Source: a virus (Duplodnaviria > Heunggongvirae > Uroviricota > Caudoviricetes). From it: DNA of 35,421 nucleotides. The notes beneath the pieces are model-generated. The model was not told the origin of the DNA and searched no databases. It saw nothing but the letters and a program-made list of their open reading frames with translations. The position numbers and the translations under genes were made by a program. Location: the IMG/VR virus record IMGVR_UViG_2751185971_000005, positions 1-35,421 of that record, one strand, 5' to 3'. This document shows, piece by piece, positions 122-9,045 of the stretch (positions within the stretch are counted from its first letter, which is position 1; every line of letters starts with the position of its first letter).

Positions 122-460
122 TTACATATGAGTGATCACTTTCAGAACATCACCACGGCAGGAGAAACGGTAGCGAAGGTGTGTTCCGATACCATCAGGA
201 TTCTTTTCGTCGATACGTTCCAGAGTGATTCCAAGCTGGCGTTCTAACTCTGTTGCATAGTTACGACCAGAAGACAGACGGCAGTAGCGAAGAATGTCAT
301 TTTCTGTCCATCCCTCTATACCAGTACGCAGCATATAGACTCTGGCACGATGCTTTTTCGGTGTGCGCTTTGGTGCTTGAAGGGATTTTGTAAGGGGCGT
401 AACATCAGATACGCGAATATCTGAATTAGCCGCCTGTAATGGGCGGTTTTTCTTATTCAT
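122..460 (-). CDS. Hypothetical small basic protein (112 aa) downstream of alpA
   Basis: ORF track; its ATG (458-460) overlaps the alpA stop (460-462) as TAATG, indicating translational coupling. No family recognised. Confidence 0.5.
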   Translation of the reverse strand: MNKKNRPLQAANSDIRVSDVTPLTKSLQAPKRTPKKHRARVYMLRTGIEGWTENDILRYCRLSSGRNYATELERQLGITLERIDEKNPDGIGTHLRYRFSCRGDVLKVITHM

Positions 461-657
461 TACGCTACCTCGCCACGCGACTCAGCGATGCGCTGATTAA
501 TCCATTCTTCAATTTCACTTTCAATAAACGCAATTGATCGGCTTCCAATCTTTACAGATTGAGGGAATCGCTGTTCTTTGATGAGCCGATAAATCCACAC
601 TTTGCTGTAACCAGTACGGCGTTGAACCTCAGAAAGACGAATAAATGATTGAGACAT
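460..657 (-). CDS. alpA: AlpA-family helix-turn-helix regulator / excisionase-like protein
   Basis: 65-aa protein MSQSFIRLSEVQRRTGYSKVWIYRLIKEQRFPQ... typical of AlpA/Vis-like prophage regulators; AGGAGT Shine-Dalgarno upstream of the ATG at 657. Confidence 0.85.
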   Translation of the reverse strand: MSQSFIRLSEVQRRTGYSKVWIYRLIKEQRFPQSVKIGSRSIAFIESEIEEWINQRIAESRGEVA

Positions 658-775
658 GTTTACTCCTATATTCTGTCATCTTCTTTAATGGACATCAGTA
701 GACAGAAAGGAGATTAAACAAACCGGTGAATGGGTGATAGCGGATAAAAATAAAATATTTTTTTGAGAAGATTAT

Positions 776-810
776 CCGCTTTGAAATACACAGTAGCGTA
801 TTCAAAGCGG
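776..810. promoter_or_regulatory. Perfect 10-bp inverted repeat (CCGCTTTGAA-N15-TTCAAAGCGG), candidate operator
   Basis: Read directly from sequence; lies in the AT-rich gap between the 293-aa ORF and alpA; no T-run follows on either strand, so not a typical terminator. Confidence 0.3.
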
Positions 811-854
811 AAATCGCGAAATTTACTTAAAACGTTTACGTAGGATTTTGCTTG

Positions 855-1736
855 CTATAAATCTCTACTCATTAAATCAGATATTTTTATCAAGCTCATT
901 TCTCTGTCTTTGTTTACATAAAGCTGAAGCAAGCGGGTGTATCTCTCGCTTATAGATTCAAGTGCAAAAGGCTTTATTGATTCCTTAATAGCCTGCGTAT
1001 CTTTCGGATCATCACTAAAAACCAAGGCAGAAATCATCGGATTGCTCACTTCCTTACCTGACTTCTCACCCCAAATCAGCAGATCAACAATAGGTATCAC
1101 TCTATTAGATATCAACTTCTGAAGGGTCTTTAATCCAATCCTTTTCTGAGCGACATGCTCTCTCTCTGGTACTTTTAACTCTTTTCGCCATAGAGGTAGA
1201 AGGTGAGTCAGGCTGGTAATAATTTCGTCATCAGTGGCGTCATCTAAATCTATAGAAACGAGTATGATGTTAGGGGAACAATTACTTAGGTTTCCAGTAA
1301 CACTCGCAAGCATAGCGTTTGCCTTGAGGTAGCAATCCTCTTCGTCTCTTTTAAAAAAGCCTTGATCTATCGATGAGAAAGAGTACATGGCCAGCTCTGA
1401 AAATGTTACTGGACTAACCCCCATAGCTGAAGATAATGAGGGTAGATCATCGTACTCATTTCTTAATGATGGGGCTTCATCATTTACTTTGCGAATAAAT
1501 TCTTCGACCTCTTCCTCTTCTTCATTGAGAATGGTTAGGTTAGGATCGCCCGAAAAAATCCTTTCATATTTTATATCGTACTCTTCTTTGAATATAGCAG
1601 TGTCATCTTTTGCATGACGCAATAAAAAATCGCGCCACTCTAATTCTTGAATCAAGTCCGGCAAGGTTAAATCATTTAAAAATTCATAATTACTAATATC
1701 AAACCATGCTAAATCTTGTTTTTTGGCTCTCACCAT
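855..1736 (-). CDS. Hypothetical acidic protein (293 aa), cargo gene between integrase and alpA
   Basis: Long ORF in an AT-rich region with an EEEEEVEE acidic tract; occupies the variable slot between int and alpA; no recognisable motif. Confidence 0.6.
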   Translation of the reverse strand: MVRAKKQDLAWFDISNYEFLNDLTLPDLIQELEWRDFLLRHAKDDTAIFKEEYDIKYERIFSGDPNLTILNEEEEEVEEFIRKVNDEAPSLRNEYDDLPSLSSAMGVSPVTFSELAMYSFSSIDQGFFKRDEEDCYLKANAMLASVTGNLSNCSPNIILVSIDLDDATDDEIITSLTHLLPLWRKELKVPEREHVAQKRIGLKTLQKLISNRVIPIVDLLIWGEKSGKEVSNPMISALVFSDDPKDTQAIKESIKPFALESISERYTRLLQLYVNKDREMSLIKISDLMSRDL

Positions 1737-1878
1737 ACGCCACCCCGCGCCCCTAATTCTGACGGCTATGCCAGCCCGTAGGGGTGTACGGGTTTTCGGG
1801 GATCAGCCTAGACATAGCCTATTCTTTGTTCGTCTACATAAGTCTACTACCATTGCTTAACACGGTCTATTCATACAG

Positions 1879-3093
1879 TTAAGCTCGTTTCCCAAACGAA
1901 CCATGAACAACGTTCTCCTCCTTCTCCAGCGCATCCATATAGTCGGCATACCATTGAAGCATCTCCCGCCTTCCATCCAGATATTGCGCATGGTTGTATG
2001 TGCCACGAATTGAGTTCTTATCAACGTGAGCGAGCTGCGTTTCTATCCACGCGGTGTTATAGCCCTGCTCATGCAAAATCGTGCTCATAGTGTGCCGGAA
2101 CCCATGACCAGTTACACGTCCAGCGTAGCCAATGCGCTTAAACACTTGGTTTATGCTGGCCTCACTCATTGTTTTCCTTGGATCATTGCGCCCGGGAAAC
2201 ATAAGAGGGTAATTGCCTGTTATTTCTCTAATCTTCCCAATAAGCGAAAGAGCCTGATCAGACAATGGCACAATATGAGGCCGCCGCATTTTCATACGTG
2301 AAGCGGGTATCTCCCAGATAGCCTTGTTGAAATCAATTTCATCCCATAATGCGCCACGTAGTTCGCCAGTCCGCAAGCCGATGATAATCAGTAGACGAGC
2401 CGCCATAACAACCAATGCGCTTCCTGAGTAACTGGACAATGCCTTGAAAAAATCAGGTAATTCTTTAGCTGTAAGGAAAGGGTAATGATTAGATTCATGG
2501 CCTTGCATCGCGCTAGTAAGGTCTGGTGCAGGGTTATACTCTGCGCGACCAGTGACTATTGCATAGCGGAAAACTTCCCCGCACCGCTGCCTCACTTTTT
2601 TGGCTTTTTCTGTAGCACCGCGCCCCTCGATGCGCCGCAGCACATTCAGAAGTTCAAGTGGTTTGATTTCGGCGATTGGTTTTTTGCCAATGTAAGGGAA
2701 CACATCTTTGTTGAAGGCTTCGAGGATGTCTGAAGCATAACCAGCAGACCATTTTTTTAATTTGCTGCTGTGCCACTCAAGGGCAATATCTTTGAAGGTG
2801 TTGTTTAACTGCGTTTCCCGGGCAATCTTTTCCTCTCGTTTCGCTTCCATCGGATCGATACCACCAGCGATACCTCTTTTCGCATCTTCACGTTTTGCCC
2901 GAGCATCGGCTAGAGTAACCTCAGGATACACACCTAGTGCCAATAGCTTCTCTTTACCAGCTACACGATATTTAAGTCGCCAGTATTTACCTCCATTAGG
3001 TTTTACCAAGAGATACAAACCGCCACCATCGGCCAGCTTGTAAGCCTTCTCTTTTGGCTTGGCTGTGTCTATTTGACGGGCATTGAGTTTCAC
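1879..3093 (-). CDS. int: Tyrosine site-specific integrase, P4 type
   Basis: 404 aa; N-terminus MKLNARQIDTAKPKEKAYKLADGGGLYLLVKPNGGKYWRLKYR and C-terminal GHGFRHT...LAH...Y catalytic region are characteristic of P4-type integrases; it lies just downstream of a tRNA 3' fragment. Confidence 0.92.
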   Translation of the reverse strand: MKLNARQIDTAKPKEKAYKLADGGGLYLLVKPNGGKYWRLKYRVAGKEKLLALGVYPEVTLADARAKREDAKRGIAGGIDPMEAKREEKIARETQLNNTFKDIALEWHSSKLKKWSAGYASDILEAFNKDVFPYIGKKPIAEIKPLELLNVLRRIEGRGATEKAKKVRQRCGEVFRYAIVTGRAEYNPAPDLTSAMQGHESNHYPFLTAKELPDFFKALSSYSGSALVVMAARLLIIIGLRTGELRGALWDEIDFNKAIWEIPASRMKMRRPHIVPLSDQALSLIGKIREITGNYPLMFPGRNDPRKTMSEASINQVFKRIGYAGRVTGHGFRHTMSTILHEQGYNTAWIETQLAHVDKNSIRGTYNHAQYLDGRREMLQWYADYMDALEKEENVVHGSFGKRA

Positions 3094-3165
3094 TTGGGGG
3101 TACCTCCACTAAACCGAACAGCAAATACCCCCATAAGTACCCCCATCTGACCGTAGATTTTGAGG

Positions 3166-3239
3166 GACTTTAGTAGGCGTCAAAAGACGAACGGGGCTTT
3201 AATACGCGGATTATAAGGGGTTTTGAAAGACTTTAGTAG
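3166..3239. repeat. Two 11-bp direct repeats GACTTTAGTAG (3166-3176 and 3229-3239) between int and the att core
   Basis: Seen in sequence; position is appropriate for integrase arm-type binding sites. Confidence 0.3.
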
Positions 3240-3258
3240 ACTTGGGGAGATGTTTGAA

Positions 3259-3304
3259 TGGTGCCGATAATAGGAGTCGAACCTACGACCTTCGCATTAC
3301 GAAT
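3259..3304 (-). repeat. att repeat: 46-bp 3' fragment of tRNA-Thr(CGU) (anticodon loop to CCA), not a complete tRNA
   Basis: Minus-strand reading gives ATTCGTAATGCGAAGGTCGTAGGTTCGACTCCTATTATCGGCACCA (anticodon loop, T-arm, acceptor 3' strand, CCA). The sequence beyond 3304 has no D-arm or 5' acceptor strand, so the tRNA is truncated, as expected for the displaced att repeat of a tRNA-integrating element. Confidence 0.8.
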
Positions 3305-3653: not shown

Positions 3654-5084
3654 TTAGCCAAAACTGATGTGATTTTTAGTTAGATCTCTATATCTCTTAT
3701 CGTTGTGTACTTTATGGAGGATCGTTTGGTTGGCGATCAAAAAATCTATAATTTCTTGAATTCTTTCGCTACGAGCATTGGCTCTTAACAAAGTCAAAAC
3801 GCTTACCATATGTTGCTGGCAGTATTTGTTGTCTAAATTCACTCGCACTTCATTAGAGTGCATTGCTATAACTGTATTGATAATGTTTTGATCGCCAAGC
3901 ATGCCAAAAAACTGATCATACAAAGGTCGTCCCGCCGGAGAAACACCAGTATTATATGGTATTCCTTTACCAACACGACAAATCAAAACTGTTTTTATAA
4001 GCTTATGAACCCTCTCTAAAGGTATGTCATTTTCAGTCTTTAAATACGAAAGAATCTTCCGCATATGAGGGGGTTCATTATAAAAGTTATCCCAAGCATA
4101 CCTAGCCTCTAAGAGATCGTCGGCATGGCCGTCCAGTGATATAATTCTAGAGTCTAATGATTGATAACGATTACCATCACAAAACGTAAAAAACTCAATA
4201 CCTAAAGCATGTTTCTCGTTGTGAAGATTGTTCTTGTATCCGTCTAGCGTCACGCCGAGCTTGTATTTTACGTTATCACTGCTTTTATTCCAGATATGCG
4301 GAGCAAAAAGAGCGATATTTTTTCTGACAACATTTCCTGTTGAATCAGCTGTATATATGCCGAAAATACTATTGAGTAGATTGTCAGTATTCTGAAGCGA
4401 CAGATCATTCAAAGGTCTTTCCATGCTATGAATTGTGGCTTCATCAAGAACATCAGTGGATCTTTTTAGATTCTCAAGGAATGATTTTATTTGTATGGCA
4501 GACGCGGACGGTTTGTCGTTCAAAATATCTTGAACGCATGTTTGGAGCCAGCCAAGAAGTTCAAAAGCATTTATGGAGTATGAATTTGGGTGCGAAGCAC
4601 CAATGTCATTCCTCATAGTCAATATATGATTGAGCTTGGTGTAAACAACGTCAGATATTAATTCAAGTTTTCGGCAAGTATTAATAAGGGTGTTGTCTTT
4701 TAAACCAGAAAGATCTTCTTCGGTAGAATAAAGCTCTCTACGTCCTCCTCCAACTGCAGCATCAAAGAACATATCGAGGCCATAAACTACTACTTTTTCC
4801 CTTAAATTCAGTACAACTTCATTCCAAACATAATTTAACGATGCATCAAATAGTCCTATAGCCGCACCAGCAACGAACTTTGATAAATATCGAGCATCTC
4901 TTTTTACCTCAGCAGGTAAAGAATCTATGAATGTGGGGAGGTTTTTTTCAATAATTTGGCGCTCAGGGAGAGAGGCAATTATATTTTCGGTCGGCAAACC
5001 AAGATAGGATAAATATCCTTCAAATTTTGTTGTATCTGTGGAAAGTACCCCTGTTCCAGGTTTTGCAATCAATTCTGAACTCAT
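3654..5084 (-). CDS. Hypothetical protein (476 aa), AT-rich orphan gene; weak HEPN-like Rx4-6H motifs
   Basis: Long ORF with AGGAA Shine-Dalgarno 8 nt upstream of the ATG at 5084; markedly AT-rich compared with neighbours; contains RNDIGASH (residues 158-165) and RDLTKNH near the C-terminus. Confidence 0.7.
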   Translation of the reverse strand: MSSELIAKPGTGVLSTDTTKFEGYLSYLGLPTENIIASLPERQIIEKNLPTFIDSLPAEVKRDARYLSKFVAGAAIGLFDASLNYVWNEVVLNLREKVVVYGLDMFFDAAVGGGRRELYSTEEDLSGLKDNTLINTCRKLELISDVVYTKLNHILTMRNDIGASHPNSYSINAFELLGWLQTCVQDILNDKPSASAIQIKSFLENLKRSTDVLDEATIHSMERPLNDLSLQNTDNLLNSIFGIYTADSTGNVVRKNIALFAPHIWNKSSDNVKYKLGVTLDGYKNNLHNEKHALGIEFFTFCDGNRYQSLDSRIISLDGHADDLLEARYAWDNFYNEPPHMRKILSYLKTENDIPLERVHKLIKTVLICRVGKGIPYNTGVSPAGRPLYDQFFGMLGDQNIINTVIAMHSNEVRVNLDNKYCQQHMVSVLTLLRANARSERIQEIIDFLIANQTILHKVHNDKRYRDLTKNHISFG

Positions 5085-5347
5085 ACGATTATTTCCTTAT
5101 CTGGTTGAAGGCTAGAGAACAGCTAACGCTTTTAGCAGGGGCGCGACGTTAGGAGCGTCCCATACCTAAACTTGTTAAGGTATTTGTGAGCAAACGCCAC
5201 CAGTATTTGGGTTTAGATCCAATACATACTTCATGCGAGTACAACCTATCCCGAATCAAGCAGGAGTCATTTCTCCCGCACTTAGGGTTTGGACATTTCA
5301 TGTTCCCTACCCATGGTGAATTCGATTCGTAATGTACGATCTTCATA

Positions 5348-5380
5348 AAGCCTTAACAATTTAATAGAAGGCTTTTTTGC
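5348..5380 (+). terminator. Orphan rho-independent terminator-like hairpin (AAGCCTT-N13-AAGGCTT followed by TTTTTT)
   Basis: Seen in sequence; oriented for plus-strand transcription, but no convincing plus-strand gene lies upstream. Confidence 0.35.
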
Positions 5381-5700
5381 CCGCAAGTGGAACATTTTTC
5401 TGCCTTCTTTCCTGATCTTTACTCACATCAAACTAACGCTGATATACCTCTATTTCAACAGGTTTTTCTGAAATCAATAAATTTGCGTCCGGCAAACTTT
5501 ATACAGCCAGTACGCGAGTTGTTCTTGATTTACTTAAGCTGGACACATGGGAATTATCCAGCGGCTTGTGCTAGTAAAAGAAGAAATTATCAGGCATTTA
5601 CCACAACGCCCAATGCCCGCTTTTGGCACAAAGCAGACGCCCACTCTCACGCGAATGCTTTGCCCTTGACTTGCCAACAACCGTATCGCTTGCTCCGCAA

Positions 5701-6978
5701 CTATGGTTTTTTATTAGAATCTTCGCCACTAAATAAATTATAATAAATTGATTTTATTAGATATCTGTCAGAATCTATATGGTCAGCACGAGTAGCATGC
5801 TCTAATGTTTCAAATGCTAGGGTTTGTGCGGCTTCAGCAAAAATTCCAGGCCAACCCTTACTCAGCATCGACAGTCCTTTAAGGACCCTTATCTGAATTT
5901 CCCTCATACTGGCACCATCGCGCGCAACAGGTGAGAAAAAGTCTTCAAGTAGATCGTTATTCTGAAGTGGTGCAACATGTACAGAAGGATATTTCACTTC
6001 TATTTCATCAGATTTATTCTGCGCGTAAGCGGAAAGTATACGTACACCTCTGCCAATGACATCAATGGCGGTTCCAGGATCGTTCACTGCGGGGGAAAGG
6101 GCTCGGCAGGCTATTTCGGCCATGACGCTAAGACAAAATCGGGGGTCCTGAGCAAATGAACGTACATCCGAGACAATAATCGTCTCAAGTAAATCGGTGC
6201 TGATTGATGACTCCTGGCCCTGACTCAGGTACAAAACTGGCGTGGACGGATGTATGAAACTGCCCGGCTGCGCCACGAGGTATACATGACGGGGATCATT
6301 GGTCAGCAGCTTACTGAGTTTCACCATATCAACATATTCAACATAGCCAATCTTTTTCGGATAAACTGCAACCGTTCCTTTCGGCTGTTCATTGTTCTCA
6401 AGCCATGGATATCCGCCGAGACAGGGATTTCTTGCTCTCGCAATAAATGTTTCGATGGCCGCCTGTTCTACTTTTGCCGTTGTCTCACCAACCCTCCCCA
6501 GAGAGGTCAAATGCTGTATCCAGCGAAGCAATGTGATGAGGATTAAGGCAATGACAACCAGTGTTACAATGAATAAAATGACTCTCCCCCTTTCTCCATA
6601 AGCTCCCATATTGAGGGCAATAATCCCTACCAGACTGAAGAGAAAAGAACCGATGAAGGTGGCCAGTACATTTTGTGTGGTGACGTCTTCAACAACTAAA
6701 CGAGTAGCTCTGGGAGTCACATTAGTAGTGGCTGAACCGTAGGCTGTGACCATGATGCTCAGCGAAAATGTGGTCACTGCCAGCATACTCGATGCCAGTA
6801 TGTTCAGAATGTTATCGACTGCTTCCGCACCAACCTTCACGGAAACCGACTCAGGTATCATTGATTTAAAAAGAATTGATAAAAGGGCCGTTATTATTGC
6901 GACAATTGCGAATAACGTTGCCCTGAACCATAGTTTTTTAAATGTCTGCTTCAGCATCCATTTCCAGCGTGAAATCAT
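5701..6978 (-). CDS. DUF2254-like predicted membrane protein
   Basis: N-terminal multi-pass hydrophobic region followed by a soluble domain; start placed at the ATG at 6978, which has a GAGGGA Shine-Dalgarno (the track's longest ORF starts at 6993). Confidence 0.7.
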   Translation of the reverse strand: MISRWKWMLKQTFKKLWFRATLFAIVAIITALLSILFKSMIPESVSVKVGAEAVDNILNILASSMLAVTTFSLSIMVTAYGSATTNVTPRATRLVVEDVTTQNVLATFIGSFLFSLVGIIALNMGAYGERGRVILFIVTLVVIALILITLLRWIQHLTSLGRVGETTAKVEQAAIETFIARARNPCLGGYPWLENNEQPKGTVAVYPKKIGYVEYVDMVKLSKLLTNDPRHVYLVAQPGSFIHPSTPVLYLSQGQESSISTDLLETIIVSDVRSFAQDPRFCLSVMAEIACRALSPAVNDPGTAIDVIGRGVRILSAYAQNKSDEIEVKYPSVHVAPLQNNDLLEDFFSPVARDGASMREIQIRVLKGLSMLSKGWPGIFAEAAQTLAFETLEHATRADHIDSDRYLIKSIYYNLFSGEDSNKKP

Positions 6979-7041
6979 TCTGCATTCCCTCATATTGCAG
7001 CCGGGATAAATAAATGCCGCCTCTGTGGCGGCATGTTGCTG

Positions 7042-9045
7042 TTAACGAACCAGATGCAGGAAGTGCAGGTGTTTTTCGTACTGGTCCAGTATGTCATTAA
7101 TCAGCTGTTCCTGATTCCAGCCCATTACATCATAATTTTGGCCGCCCTCTTTGAGATAGACTTCAGCGCGATAATATCGATGTTGTTCACTCTGCTGCTC
7201 ATCATTATCCAGCGCAGCGAGCGCGAAGGTCGGTGAGTTATACCCGCGAAGCCTCACTTCATATATATAATTCAGCTCGTTGCCCAAATCGACTTCAAGG
7301 CGAATACGATCCTCGGCGGCGTCACTGATGTGGCTTATCGTTCCCTGCTTGTTAAGTTCCTCCTGAACCAGCGTCATGGCGGGTTGGATAATGTCGTCCA
7401 TAAAACGTTTCACAAGAGAGCGCTTCGGCAAATACGCGATATTGCGTAACCTTCTCTGCCAGGGAATTGGGTTACGTGCAGCCGTAGGAGCAATAGTCGC
7501 CATGCTAAGGCTTTCACGCTTGGTCAAATCCCGACGCAGGGCTTTTAACAGTCCGTATATGGATATTAATAAGATAACTGAGAAGGGCAATGCACTCGCT
7601 ATCGTTACGGTTTGCAACGCACTCAGCCCCCCTGCGATCAGCAGGGCAATAGCAACAACGCCCATGAGCAATGCCCAGAAAATTCGCTGCCAGACGGGCG
7701 TGTTTGCCACCCCACCTGATGCCAGAGTATCCACAACCATTGCCCCCGAATCAGCAGACGTTACAAAGAAGACGATGACCATCGCCATTGCAATGAATGA
7801 CAGCACGGAAGAGAACGGGAAATGCTCCAGGAAATTAAACAGGGCAAGCGCAACATCCTGCTGAACGGTATTGGCGAGGTCAGTGGCGCCCTGGTTCATG
7901 ATGAGATAGATGGCGCTGTTTCCAAACACCGTCATCCACATGAGCGTAAAGCCGGCGGGAACAAACAACACGCCAGTCACGAACTCACGAATTGTCCTGC
8001 CGCGGGAAACGCGTGCAATGAACATACCTACAAACGGCGACCATGAAAGCCACCATCCCCAGTATAATAATGTCCAGCCCCCCAGCCAGTTGCTCGACTT
8101 GGGTTCATACGCGTAAAGGTTGAACGTTTTACTCACCAGTTCCGACAGATAACCACCCGTATTTTCCACAAATGACTTCAGCAGAAGCACAGTGGGACCC
8201 AGGCACAAGACCAGCGCCAGGAGCAACACCGCCAGGCCCAGATTAAGCTCAGACAGGATGCGTATTCCCTTGTCCAGGCCGGACACCACCGAAATCGTCG
8301 CTAACCCCGTGATGACCACGATCAAAATGACCTGTACCGTTTCATTGATGGGCACGCCGAAAAGATGGTTCAAACCGGCATTCACCTGCAATACACCGTA
8401 ACCCAGCGATGTTGCAACGCCAAAGACAGTGCCTATCACGGCGAAGATATCAACCGCGTGGCCTATAGGCCCGTAAATGCGATCGCCGATAATGGGATAG
8501 AGCGCAGAACGCAGCGTTAAAGGCAGACCGTGACGGTAACTGAAAAAGGCCAGAATCAGCGCCACGATGGCATAAATTGCCCATGCGTGCAGACCCCAGT
8601 GGAAGAACGTCAGGCGCATGGCTTCCTTCGCTGCCGCAACGGTCTCTGGAGTGCCGACAGGTGGCGAAAGATAATGCATCACAGGTTCGGCAACGCCAAA
8701 GAACATCAGGCCGATCCCCATCCCTGCCGAAAAAAGCATCGCGAACCAGGAGTGGTAGCTGAAATCAGGCTGCGCATGGTCTGGGCCCAGCTTTATATCA
8801 CCGTAACGTGAGAGTCCAAGGAACGTGACGCTCAGTAAAATCAGGGCCACAGCAAGTATGTAGAACCAGCTGGCATTCGTGAAGATTTGTTGCTGAAGTA
8901 GTTTAAAATTTTTGTCGGCGACATCCGGGAATACGGCGGCAAAGGCGACAAGAAGGAAAATTAGCAAAGCAGATGTAAAGAATACCGCTTTGTTAACCTG
9001 GCTTGTAGACTTCTTTGGGGTTGTATCATTTTCACTCATAATCAT
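7042..9045 (-). CDS. BCCT-family transporter (BetT-like choline/betaine/carnitine transporter) with long C-terminal cytoplasmic tail
   Basis: 667 aa with conserved BCCT signature segments (WTLLYWGWWLSWSPFVGMFIARVSRGRTIREF) and a BetT-like C-terminal extension. Confidence 0.9.
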   Translation of the reverse strand: MIMSENDTTPKKSTSQVNKAVFFTSALLIFLLVAFAAVFPDVADKNFKLLQQQIFTNASWFYILAVALILLSVTFLGLSRYGDIKLGPDHAQPDFSYHSWFAMLFSAGMGIGLMFFGVAEPVMHYLSPPVGTPETVAAAKEAMRLTFFHWGLHAWAIYAIVALILAFFSYRHGLPLTLRSALYPIIGDRIYGPIGHAVDIFAVIGTVFGVATSLGYGVLQVNAGLNHLFGVPINETVQVILIVVITGLATISVVSGLDKGIRILSELNLGLAVLLLALVLCLGPTVLLLKSFVENTGGYLSELVSKTFNLYAYEPKSSNWLGGWTLLYWGWWLSWSPFVGMFIARVSRGRTIREFVTGVLFVPAGFTLMWMTVFGNSAIYLIMNQGATDLANTVQQDVALALFNFLEHFPFSSVLSFIAMAMVIVFFVTSADSGAMVVDTLASGGVANTPVWQRIFWALLMGVVAIALLIAGGLSALQTVTIASALPFSVILLISIYGLLKALRRDLTKRESLSMATIAPTAARNPIPWQRRLRNIAYLPKRSLVKRFMDDIIQPAMTLVQEELNKQGTISHISDAAEDRIRLEVDLGNELNYIYEVRLRGYNSPTFALAALDNDEQQSEQHRYYRAEVYLKEGGQNYDVMGWNQEQLINDILDQYEKHLHFLHLVR

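Follow-up and report, generated by a model that had tools for sequence, protein, structure and literature searches.

The gene at positions 855–1736 (minus strand) of the virus record IMGVR_UViG_2751185971_000005, whose full stretch of 35,421 nucleotides is referred to here as the window, encodes a DUF6387 family protein of 293 amino acids that starts with an ATG codon (open reading frame [ORF] list, Pfam, composition, and alignment). It lies between the genes for a P4-type tyrosine integrase (int) and the regulator AlpA (alpA) in a satellite of Escherichia coli. Judged by sequence comparison, the int-alpA interval is a true gene-turnover slot in which the DUF6387 gene is dispensable and one of many occupants. 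The protein is tentatively interpreted as a nonenzymatic accessory cargo of the 5′ slot of a phage-inducible chromosomal island (PICI), possibly one that interferes with phages by stoichiometric binding. The DUF6387 family and the int-alpA RNA motif, both of which are catalogued, were already known, as was the hotspot principle. New genes that counter or manipulate phages are plentiful in phage satellites, and the occupants of the int-alpA slot of Gram-negative PICIs are almost all proteins without a database name. DUF6387 is the most widespread occupant seen here, with 507 diverged clusters ranging from the Enterobacterales to Gilliamella and marine contigs.

Gene turnover between the integrase and alpA

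Of 5426 complete E. coli genomes, 87 contain DUF6387 DNA, each as a single chromosomal copy (86 copies at ≥99%), and 347 genomes have the alpA region at a coverage of ≥80%. Within the E. coli satellites with closely related integrases, the int-alpA slot is either empty or filled with one of at least six unrelated gene sets. Two loci have a slot of ~430–470 bp that holds no gene, one with an integrase of 94% protein identity to the window that is disrupted by an insertion sequence (IS; L019) and one with an intact integrase at thrW (L040). A third locus, again with an intact integrase at thrW, holds a 129 amino acid ORF on the opposite strand (L041). Unrelated proteins of 239 and 294 amino acids fill the slot in loci with integrases of 97% (L033) and 86% identity (L020, slot gene at 6664–7548), respectively. 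Among the more distant loci, two with integrases of 65–66% identity carry a protein of 265 amino acids (L034, 1974–2771) and a pair of 106 and 147 amino acids (L035, 1990–2773), a protein of ~310 amino acids accompanies an integrase of 62% identity (L032, 1867–2880), and one of 321 amino acids accompanies an integrase of 29% identity (L021, 6653–7618). The slot proteins other than DUF6387 gave no convincing match to DUF6387, Pfam, or PADLOC, and a relationship between them and DUF6387 was ruled out at the profile level (hhalign, 0.14% against the L020 protein and 0.3% against YfjH, the corresponding protein of CP4-57). The original prediction, made from the window sequence alone, had proposed variable cargo and a comparison of int-alpA intervals for gene turnover; the empty slots and unrelated genes bear it out.

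The extent of the exchanged DNA can be read from the comparison with L020, which is homologous to the window over positions 1734–3304 and 134–663. The homology stops at the start codon on one side (1734) and immediately above alpA on the other (663), which delimits the swapped segment as exactly the ORF and the region upstream of alpA. Homologous recombination between satellites would drop varied genes into the slot. A small AlpA tree, which is weak given a protein of 65 amino acids, places the DUF6387 loci in among those with other occupants of the slot, and a covariation of DUF6387 with one AlpA clade was not seen in this tree.

The same comparisons bear on the view that DUF6387 belongs to the core proteins of the satellite, with a role in structure, packaging, or replication, or that the ORF is spurious or decaying. 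Synteny is kept wherever DUF6387 is present, as would be expected of a core protein, but closely related satellites lack the gene and the protein matches no structural or replication family, so that the outcome named in the original prediction as refuting it was not observed. The 507 diverged cluster representatives keep a constant length, which together with the invariant residues of the family excludes a spurious ORF. Taken together, this explanation is very improbable.

Two observations concern the alternative occupants themselves. The slot proteins of L020 and L021 have only a 26-residue N-terminal motif in common (YCxxERAxKxxxCEIDDxxHW), and the 265 amino acid protein of L034 resembles a fusion of the two ORFs of L035 (106 and 147 amino acids). 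The slot proteins of these four loci are all unannotated.

The DUF6387 protein, its distribution and its possible role

The protein had been described as the acidic product of an AT-rich ORF with an EEEEEVEE tract, and all of these features are present: the isoelectric point is 4.62, 55 Asp and Glu residues stand against 35 Lys and Arg residues (net charge ~−20), residues 71–80 read NEEEEEVEEF, and the gene has a lower GC content (38.0%) than int (47.5%) and the window as a whole (50.9%). The accompanying label “unrecognised” holds for its function only, because the protein matches Pfam family PF19924 (DUF6387; E = 3.7e-38, 132 bits against a gathering score of 28.9) over residues 5–269 of 293 and profile positions 6–256 of 258, and identical copies are annotated in RefSeq as “DUF6387 family protein” (WP_000251023.1). 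The match in PHROG (PHROG 23422) carries the function label “unknown”, no NCBIfam model was matched, and mentions of DUF6387 in the literature are limited to two gene tables, in each of which AlpA is adjacent.

A word-indexed search identified 47 full-length relatives with 43–100% identity in the genera Escherichia, Salmonella, Klebsiella, Enterobacter, Yersinia, Pantoea, Pectobacterium, Providencia, Morganella, Xenorhabdus, and Kosakonia; its repetition with a deep alignment added no further distant members. An exhaustive profile search returned 507 cluster representatives (E ≤ 1e-3), nearly all 260–330 amino acids in length, and a scan of genome contigs for related loci returned six. DUF6387 is the sole Pfam match in each of 65 diverse homologues tested. 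An alignment of 28 sequences has a mean column identity of 68% with a start methionine common to all, and the acidic tract is poorly conserved in it. The residues that are near-invariant in the deep alignment (W11, F12, Y17, R35, L180, R184, D218, and W222) amount to a hydrophobic/aromatic core with two arginines and one aspartate and include no recognisable catalytic motif. Overall, the DUF6387 protein is conserved, soluble, and acidic, and has no detectable enzymatic domain.

The AlphaFold2 model built on the deep alignment has a mean predicted local distance difference test score (pLDDT) of 87.4 and a predicted template modelling score of 0.80, with pLDDT values <50 only at residues 83–94. 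In the model the protein is predicted to be mainly helical, with a well-defined N-terminal part (~1–65), a C-terminal part (~165–293), which is the best conserved, and a variable acidic linker between them. The acidic tract lies within the sole low-confidence part of the model and is probably disordered. The original prediction assigned no fold; the model is confident, yet no solved or viral structure resembles it. Foldseek found no match among viral predicted structures, solved proteins including Ocr and ArdA show no structural similarity, and a profile search of all Protein Data Bank sequences gave only one meaningless match (E = 0.44). An N-terminal AlpA/excisionase-like helix-turn-helix (HTH) in DUF6387 was ruled out at the profile level (hhalign probability of 0.1% against the AlpA alignment).

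The genomic position of DUF6387 was surveyed in 17 distinct contexts. Among them are PICIs of enterobacteria at several attachment (att) sites, satellites carrying both a capsid gene and a primase of the D5 type, a circular Klebsiella element of 17 kb, a backbone of the ICEKp258.2 type on a plasmid, a tRNA-Leu island of Salmonella houtenae, an island of Gilliamella, and contigs of marine origin. At identities as low as 24–28%, DUF6387 is still located downstream of a tyrosine integrase and, where downstream sequence is available, an AlpA/HTH_17 gene starts 115–220 bp after it. The sole exception is a 20% identical homologue on a conjugative-type contig, where its neighbours are an ankyrin-repeat gene on one side and an orphan D12 methyltransferase gene on the other. 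No family member was found in true phage genomes, and 5 of 72,556 plasmids carry one. In Gilliamella sp. Choc4-2 (L008, 4673–8834), a gene for a TerS-like gp3 protein and an RnlA/RnlB toxin–antitoxin pair are located between int and DUF6387, which still abuts alpA; no second case of a known anti-phage system in the slot was seen.

Two of the contexts have features of their own. Two marine metagenome contigs (L037, 1619–3330; L038, 221–1932) encode tandem DUF6387 paralogues of 272 and 298 amino acids with a 4-nt overlap, placed between an integrase and an AlpA-like gene. The circular Klebsiella “plasmid” CP018459.1 (L029, 16,971 bp) carries terminase, capsid, and integrase genes, a DUF6387 homologue in 4-nt overlap with the stop codon of int, and a gene like alpA; by its gene content it looks like an excised, capsid-gene-carrying satellite that was deposited as a plasmid.

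PICIs carry immune systems at their 5′ or 3′ ends (PMC11364771). As cargo of this kind, the DUF6387 protein would bind a phage component (protein or DNA) stoichiometrically, and the binding would block a helper phage or a competing phage, from which satellite and host would both profit. Phage interference is favoured because of the immune genes at PICI 5′ ends, the RnlA/RnlB neighbour, the dispensability and low GC content of the gene, and the precedents for nonenzymatic PICI defences; one of these is Tai, a PICI-borne single-gene system that reportedly acts in this way. Several points weigh against this interpretation, which is put forward with less than even confidence. A search of PADLOC-DB v2 returned no family for DUF6387 at E values up to 1 and none for seven other slot proteins, save a weak match of the L021 protein to PDC-S31 (E = 0.002). 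Defence genes are usually also found in defence islands, prophages, and plasmids. DUF6387 is nearly confined to one position, after the integrase and directly before alpA/HTH_17, down to 24–28% identity, and such positional fidelity is unusual for freely moving defence cargo and fits a functional tie to alpA as well. Finally, the hairpin that follows the gene in the window (see below) has no clean U-tract. Of the earlier proposal of a defence or helper-interference gene, the part that concerns cargo of a variable slot is upheld, whereas a defence match is absent, with no hit in PADLOC.

A regulatory role is retained as a less probable explanation because of the near-exclusive location directly upstream of alpA down to 24% identity. 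DUF6387 would then be an optional protein, be it a repressor, an anti-activator, or a sensor of the helper phage, that determines when alpA fires or when Int and AlpA excise the island, in functional analogy to Stl of the staphylococcal pathogenicity islands. Like DUF6387, Stl is encoded beside int and before a regulatory gene of the island and shows high diversity between islands. Stl, which occurs in every island, contains an HTH domain and is transcribed divergently. In DUF6387, by contrast, no HTH is detectable; its gene has the same direction as alpA and is missing from close relatives. The unusual fidelity of its position beside alpA thus speaks for a regulator, but its absence from close relatives, the lack of a detectable DNA-binding domain, and the nonconserved sequence of the downstream hairpin make this role rather doubtful.

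The composition of the protein suggests a further possibility, namely an anti-defence or host-adaptation factor that aids establishment, such as a DNA-mimic-like acidic protein that inhibits restriction or a DNA-binding protein of a competing element. The net charge of ~−20 and the acidic linker would suit such a factor, as would the 20% identical homologue that stands without int and alpA beside the orphan D12 methyltransferase gene on the conjugative-type contig. However, the acidity is moderate and concentrated in the poorly conserved linker, the model bears no structural likeness to Ocr, ArdA, or any solved protein, and the supporting context is a single one, so that this explanation is considered improbable.

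Leader and hairpin on either side of the slot gene

The spacer between int and the ORF is better conserved than the ORF and is common to loci with unrelated slot genes. It contains the int-alpA RNA motif (Rfam RF02996) at 1751–1818 (minus strand; cmscan 46.7 bits against a gathering score of 35.8, E = 9.6e-8), which ends 14 nt before the ATG of the DUF6387 gene. RF02996 also scores above threshold at 11 further loci (among them L004, L005, L012, L013, L015, L020, L021, L032, L034, and L035), and the gap between motif and start codon is 13–20 nt in all 12 loci, whose slot genes encode DUF6387 or members of five unrelated families. The motif was not found at the empty slots of L019 and L040 or at L041. 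Compensatory changes are present at 10 of the 18 pairs predicted in an alignment of 11 loci, and the G-U pairs fall on the gene strand; predicted stems and covariation agree with those of RF02996. Between the motif and the gene, a conserved ribosome-binding stretch (GGGGCGCGGGGTGGCGT before the ATG; 1737–1750, minus strand) was identified from alignments that include unrelated slot genes; this GAGGTG-type stretch reaches the ATG and is kept in the 11-locus alignment.

RF02996 is typed as “sRNA” in Rfam, and the main text of the paper that introduced the int-alpA motif contains nothing on it. The fixed spacing of 13–20 nt and the absence of the motif at empty slots suggest a cis-acting leader, instead of or besides a trans-acting small RNA, and the spacing before unrelated genes gives this orphan Rfam motif a testable role. 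The leader, consisting of the doubled motif described next, the int-alpA RNA, and the ribosome-binding stretch, would supply expression signals to any gene in the slot.

The doubled motif GTAGAC-N4-GTAGAC occurs as an exact match just 5′ of RF02996 (1832–1847, minus strand). A copy with two mismatches precedes the alpA ATG by ~38 nt and is inverted relative to the first (688–703, plus strand), and two overlapping copies (3226–3241 and 3236–3251; together 3226–3251, plus strand) lie beside the att repeat. These four matches in the window compare with 0.9 expected, and none of 100 shuffles reached four. The GTAG of the second GTAGAC copy at 1832–1847 is invariant in seven loci, and GTCTACT at the 688–703 position is kept in most enterobacterial DUF6387 loci. 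The copies are candidate arm-type sites of Int or candidate AlpA sites that would link att, the slot gene, and alpA; the same question of Int or AlpA binding has been posed for a doubled motif in helper-embedded PICIs (PMC10111431).

On the other side of the gene, before alpA, the original prediction had noted a perfect 10-bp inverted repeat at 776–810. The repeat is real and slightly longer than described, with perfect 11-nt arms at 775–785 and 801–811 within a terminator-like hairpin at 770–815 (minus strand). Folded as RNA, 770–815 forms a stem of ~20 bp (ΔG = −24.9 kcal/mol, z = −7.2) that was equalled by none of 200 shuffles. Its tail in the window reads AUAAUCUUCUC, and a consensus scan made no terminator call there; a scan for promoter and terminator consensus sequences around the DUF6387 gene yielded nothing useful. 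A hairpin of differing sequence is found at the equivalent place in 10 of 11 other loci and is followed by U-runs in four of them, and the Salmonella orthologue keeps the CGCTTTGAA/TTCAAAGCG stem of the window and continues with U7. Because hairpins stand at the same place across loci, the inverted repeat is best read as the terminator of the slot gene, possibly a weakened one in the window. It would keep transcription of the slot gene out of alpA, the induction switch of the satellite; alpA is a helper-induced, self-activating master switch (PMC11773190, PMC10111431). An operator for DUF6387 at the inverted repeat is disfavoured, since orthologous loci carry hairpins of unrelated sequence there.

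The leader and the regulatory role can also be joined into one scheme, in which RF02996 is the built-in leader of a cassette slot, with the cargo plugged in at its start codon, and DUF6387 is an optional tuner of the AlpA switch (a helper sensor or anti-activator). As a combined claim this is speculative and has a low probability; if it were true, Gram-negative satellites would have in DUF6387 a functional counterpart of Stl whose fold is not among the solved structures.

A second, imperfect inverted repeat spans the stop codon of the DUF6387 gene (841–872, GTAGAGATTT...AAAATCCTAC). In Salmonella the repeat is perfect (GTAGAATTT/AAATTCTAC), and Yersinia, Providencia, and Shimwellia have it as well. 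The AGA codon of Arg291 may be constrained at the nucleic-acid level, because this invariant codon sits inside the repeat. In L032, the RefSeq coding sequence of the slot gene begins within RF02996 (2815–2883), and the true start is probably an internal methionine codon at ~2799, because the first 27 annotated codons translate the RNA motif.

The host element and its relation to known satellites

On the minus strand, the window contains in order a 3′ fragment of thrW (3259–3304), the integrase gene (3093–1879), the DUF6387 gene, alpA (657–460), and an ORF of 112 codons (460–122). The identity of both neighbours of the DUF6387 gene, a P4-type integrase and an AlpA regulator as first described, is confirmed by their Pfam domains: the integrase (404 amino acids; 1879–3093, minus strand) contains Arm-DNA-bind_3, Phage_int_M, and Phage_integrase, and the AlpA-family regulator/excisionase-like protein (65 amino acids; 460–657, minus strand) matches PF05930 (E = 9.4e-19). 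The integrase is 99.8% identical to thrW-associated integrases, and the host and integration site are E. coli and thrW, respectively.

The att repeat of the satellite at 3259–3304 (minus strand) corresponds to the 3′ 46 nt of tRNA-Thr (thrW), as defined by homology to L002, in which the full tRNA-Thr is annotated and the homology to which ends at 3304. ARAGORN found no tRNA in the whole window. As the window holds only these 46 nt, the satellite is not adjacent to an intact thrW; other inserted DNA separates the two in a tandem or composite island arrangement, and the DNA to the right of the satellite is other island or prophage material. At the opposite end, homology to L001 and L002 begins at 126, and the ORF after alpA is a truncated copy (112 amino acids; 122–460, minus strand) of a 143 amino acid gene product, with 99% identity over 112 amino acids to L001. 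Positions 1–127 (no strand assigned) are the end of a multicopy IS4-like element of the ISEc60 type, which is matched on chromosomes and plasmids and at up to 16 places per genome, with one match annotated as an IS4-like ISEc60 transposase. This copy of the satellite is thus interrupted, since the IS4-like end at ~125 cuts the gene after alpA.

A full copy that is 99% identical (L001, strain 6409) shows the remaining layout: alpA is followed by the gene for the 143 amino acid protein, AntA (AntA/Bro), DUF4222, Ash, and small ORFs, and further on by a TOPRIM-DUF927 primase, DUF2824, P22-like ejection proteins, and PerC. Gram-negative PICIs are organised into an integration zone (Int, AlpA), a Bro zone, a replication zone, and a late zone (PMC10111431), and the satellite is classed with them because the L001 layout is the same. 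Furthermore, int and alpA are neighbouring and co-directional and are located at one end beside the tRNA att site, as in other PICIs. Gene content and order thus place the element at thrW among the Gram-negative satellites of the PICI type and not with P4 proper. The earlier designation as a P4/CP4-57-like element is accordingly correct for the P4-type int and alpA, but the element is of the PICI type, has no annotated psu, sid, or delta, and differs from CP4-57 in its slot gene.

The 5′ region of Gram-negative PICIs in general is a close parallel to the int-alpA slot. The element type is the same (int, alpA, and primase in one direction), the variable region is at the same end and turns over from strain to strain, and the RnlA/RnlB pair occupies the slot of one related locus. 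DUF6387 departs from typical hotspot cargo in that it matches no defence family and is almost never found elsewhere. EcCIMP1, an E. coli PICI and the only relative considered here with experimentally shown helper-dependent induction, packaging, and transfer (PMC11773190), resembles L001 in its order of int, slot, alpA, and, further on, primase, DUF2824/P22-like ejection genes, and PerC. Its slot gene EcCIMP1_002 differs, being small, about one-tenth the size of UvrB (PMC11773190), and not DUF6387, a comparison based on its description only.

CP4-57 of E. coli K-12 (intA-yfjH-alpA) likewise has a P4-type integrase, AlpA, and a single gene for ~300 amino acids between them; unlike DUF6387, yfjH is on the opposite strand and its product has no similarity to DUF6387 (hhalign, 0.3%), and CP4-57 integrates at ssrA instead of thrW. 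P4 is comparable as a tRNA-integrating satellite with a P4-type integrase and variable cargo between conserved genes, and RNAs of the C4/isrK type occur in the Ash region of relatives of the present element. In contrast to P4, the annotation of L001 shows no P4 alpha primase, its primase being a TOPRIM + DUF927 protein by annotation only, and no psu, sid, or delta gene, a negative that is likewise based on annotation, with no dedicated hidden Markov model search run. In P4 the hotspot for defence genes is near psu/cos and not between int and alpA. A defence hotspot of P4 was reportedly described by Rousset and colleagues (2022; cited in PMC13612085).

The C4 antisense RNA (RF01695) and isrK (RF01394) are found side by side in the Ash region of eight related loci (L013, L015, L019, L020, L021, L032, L040, and L041). 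These matches in the Ash/Bro zone, outside the window, indicate P4-type RNA immunity in the PICI-like relatives.

To the right of the att fragment, the window continues with an AT-rich block (3654–9045) that encodes a 476 amino acid protein (phrog_27609, label “unknown”), a DUF2254 protein (5701–6993), and a BCCT-family transporter (7042–9045). In a 100% identical copy of this block, a LEM-3-like GIY-YIG protein, pinE, and tail/baseplate genes come next.

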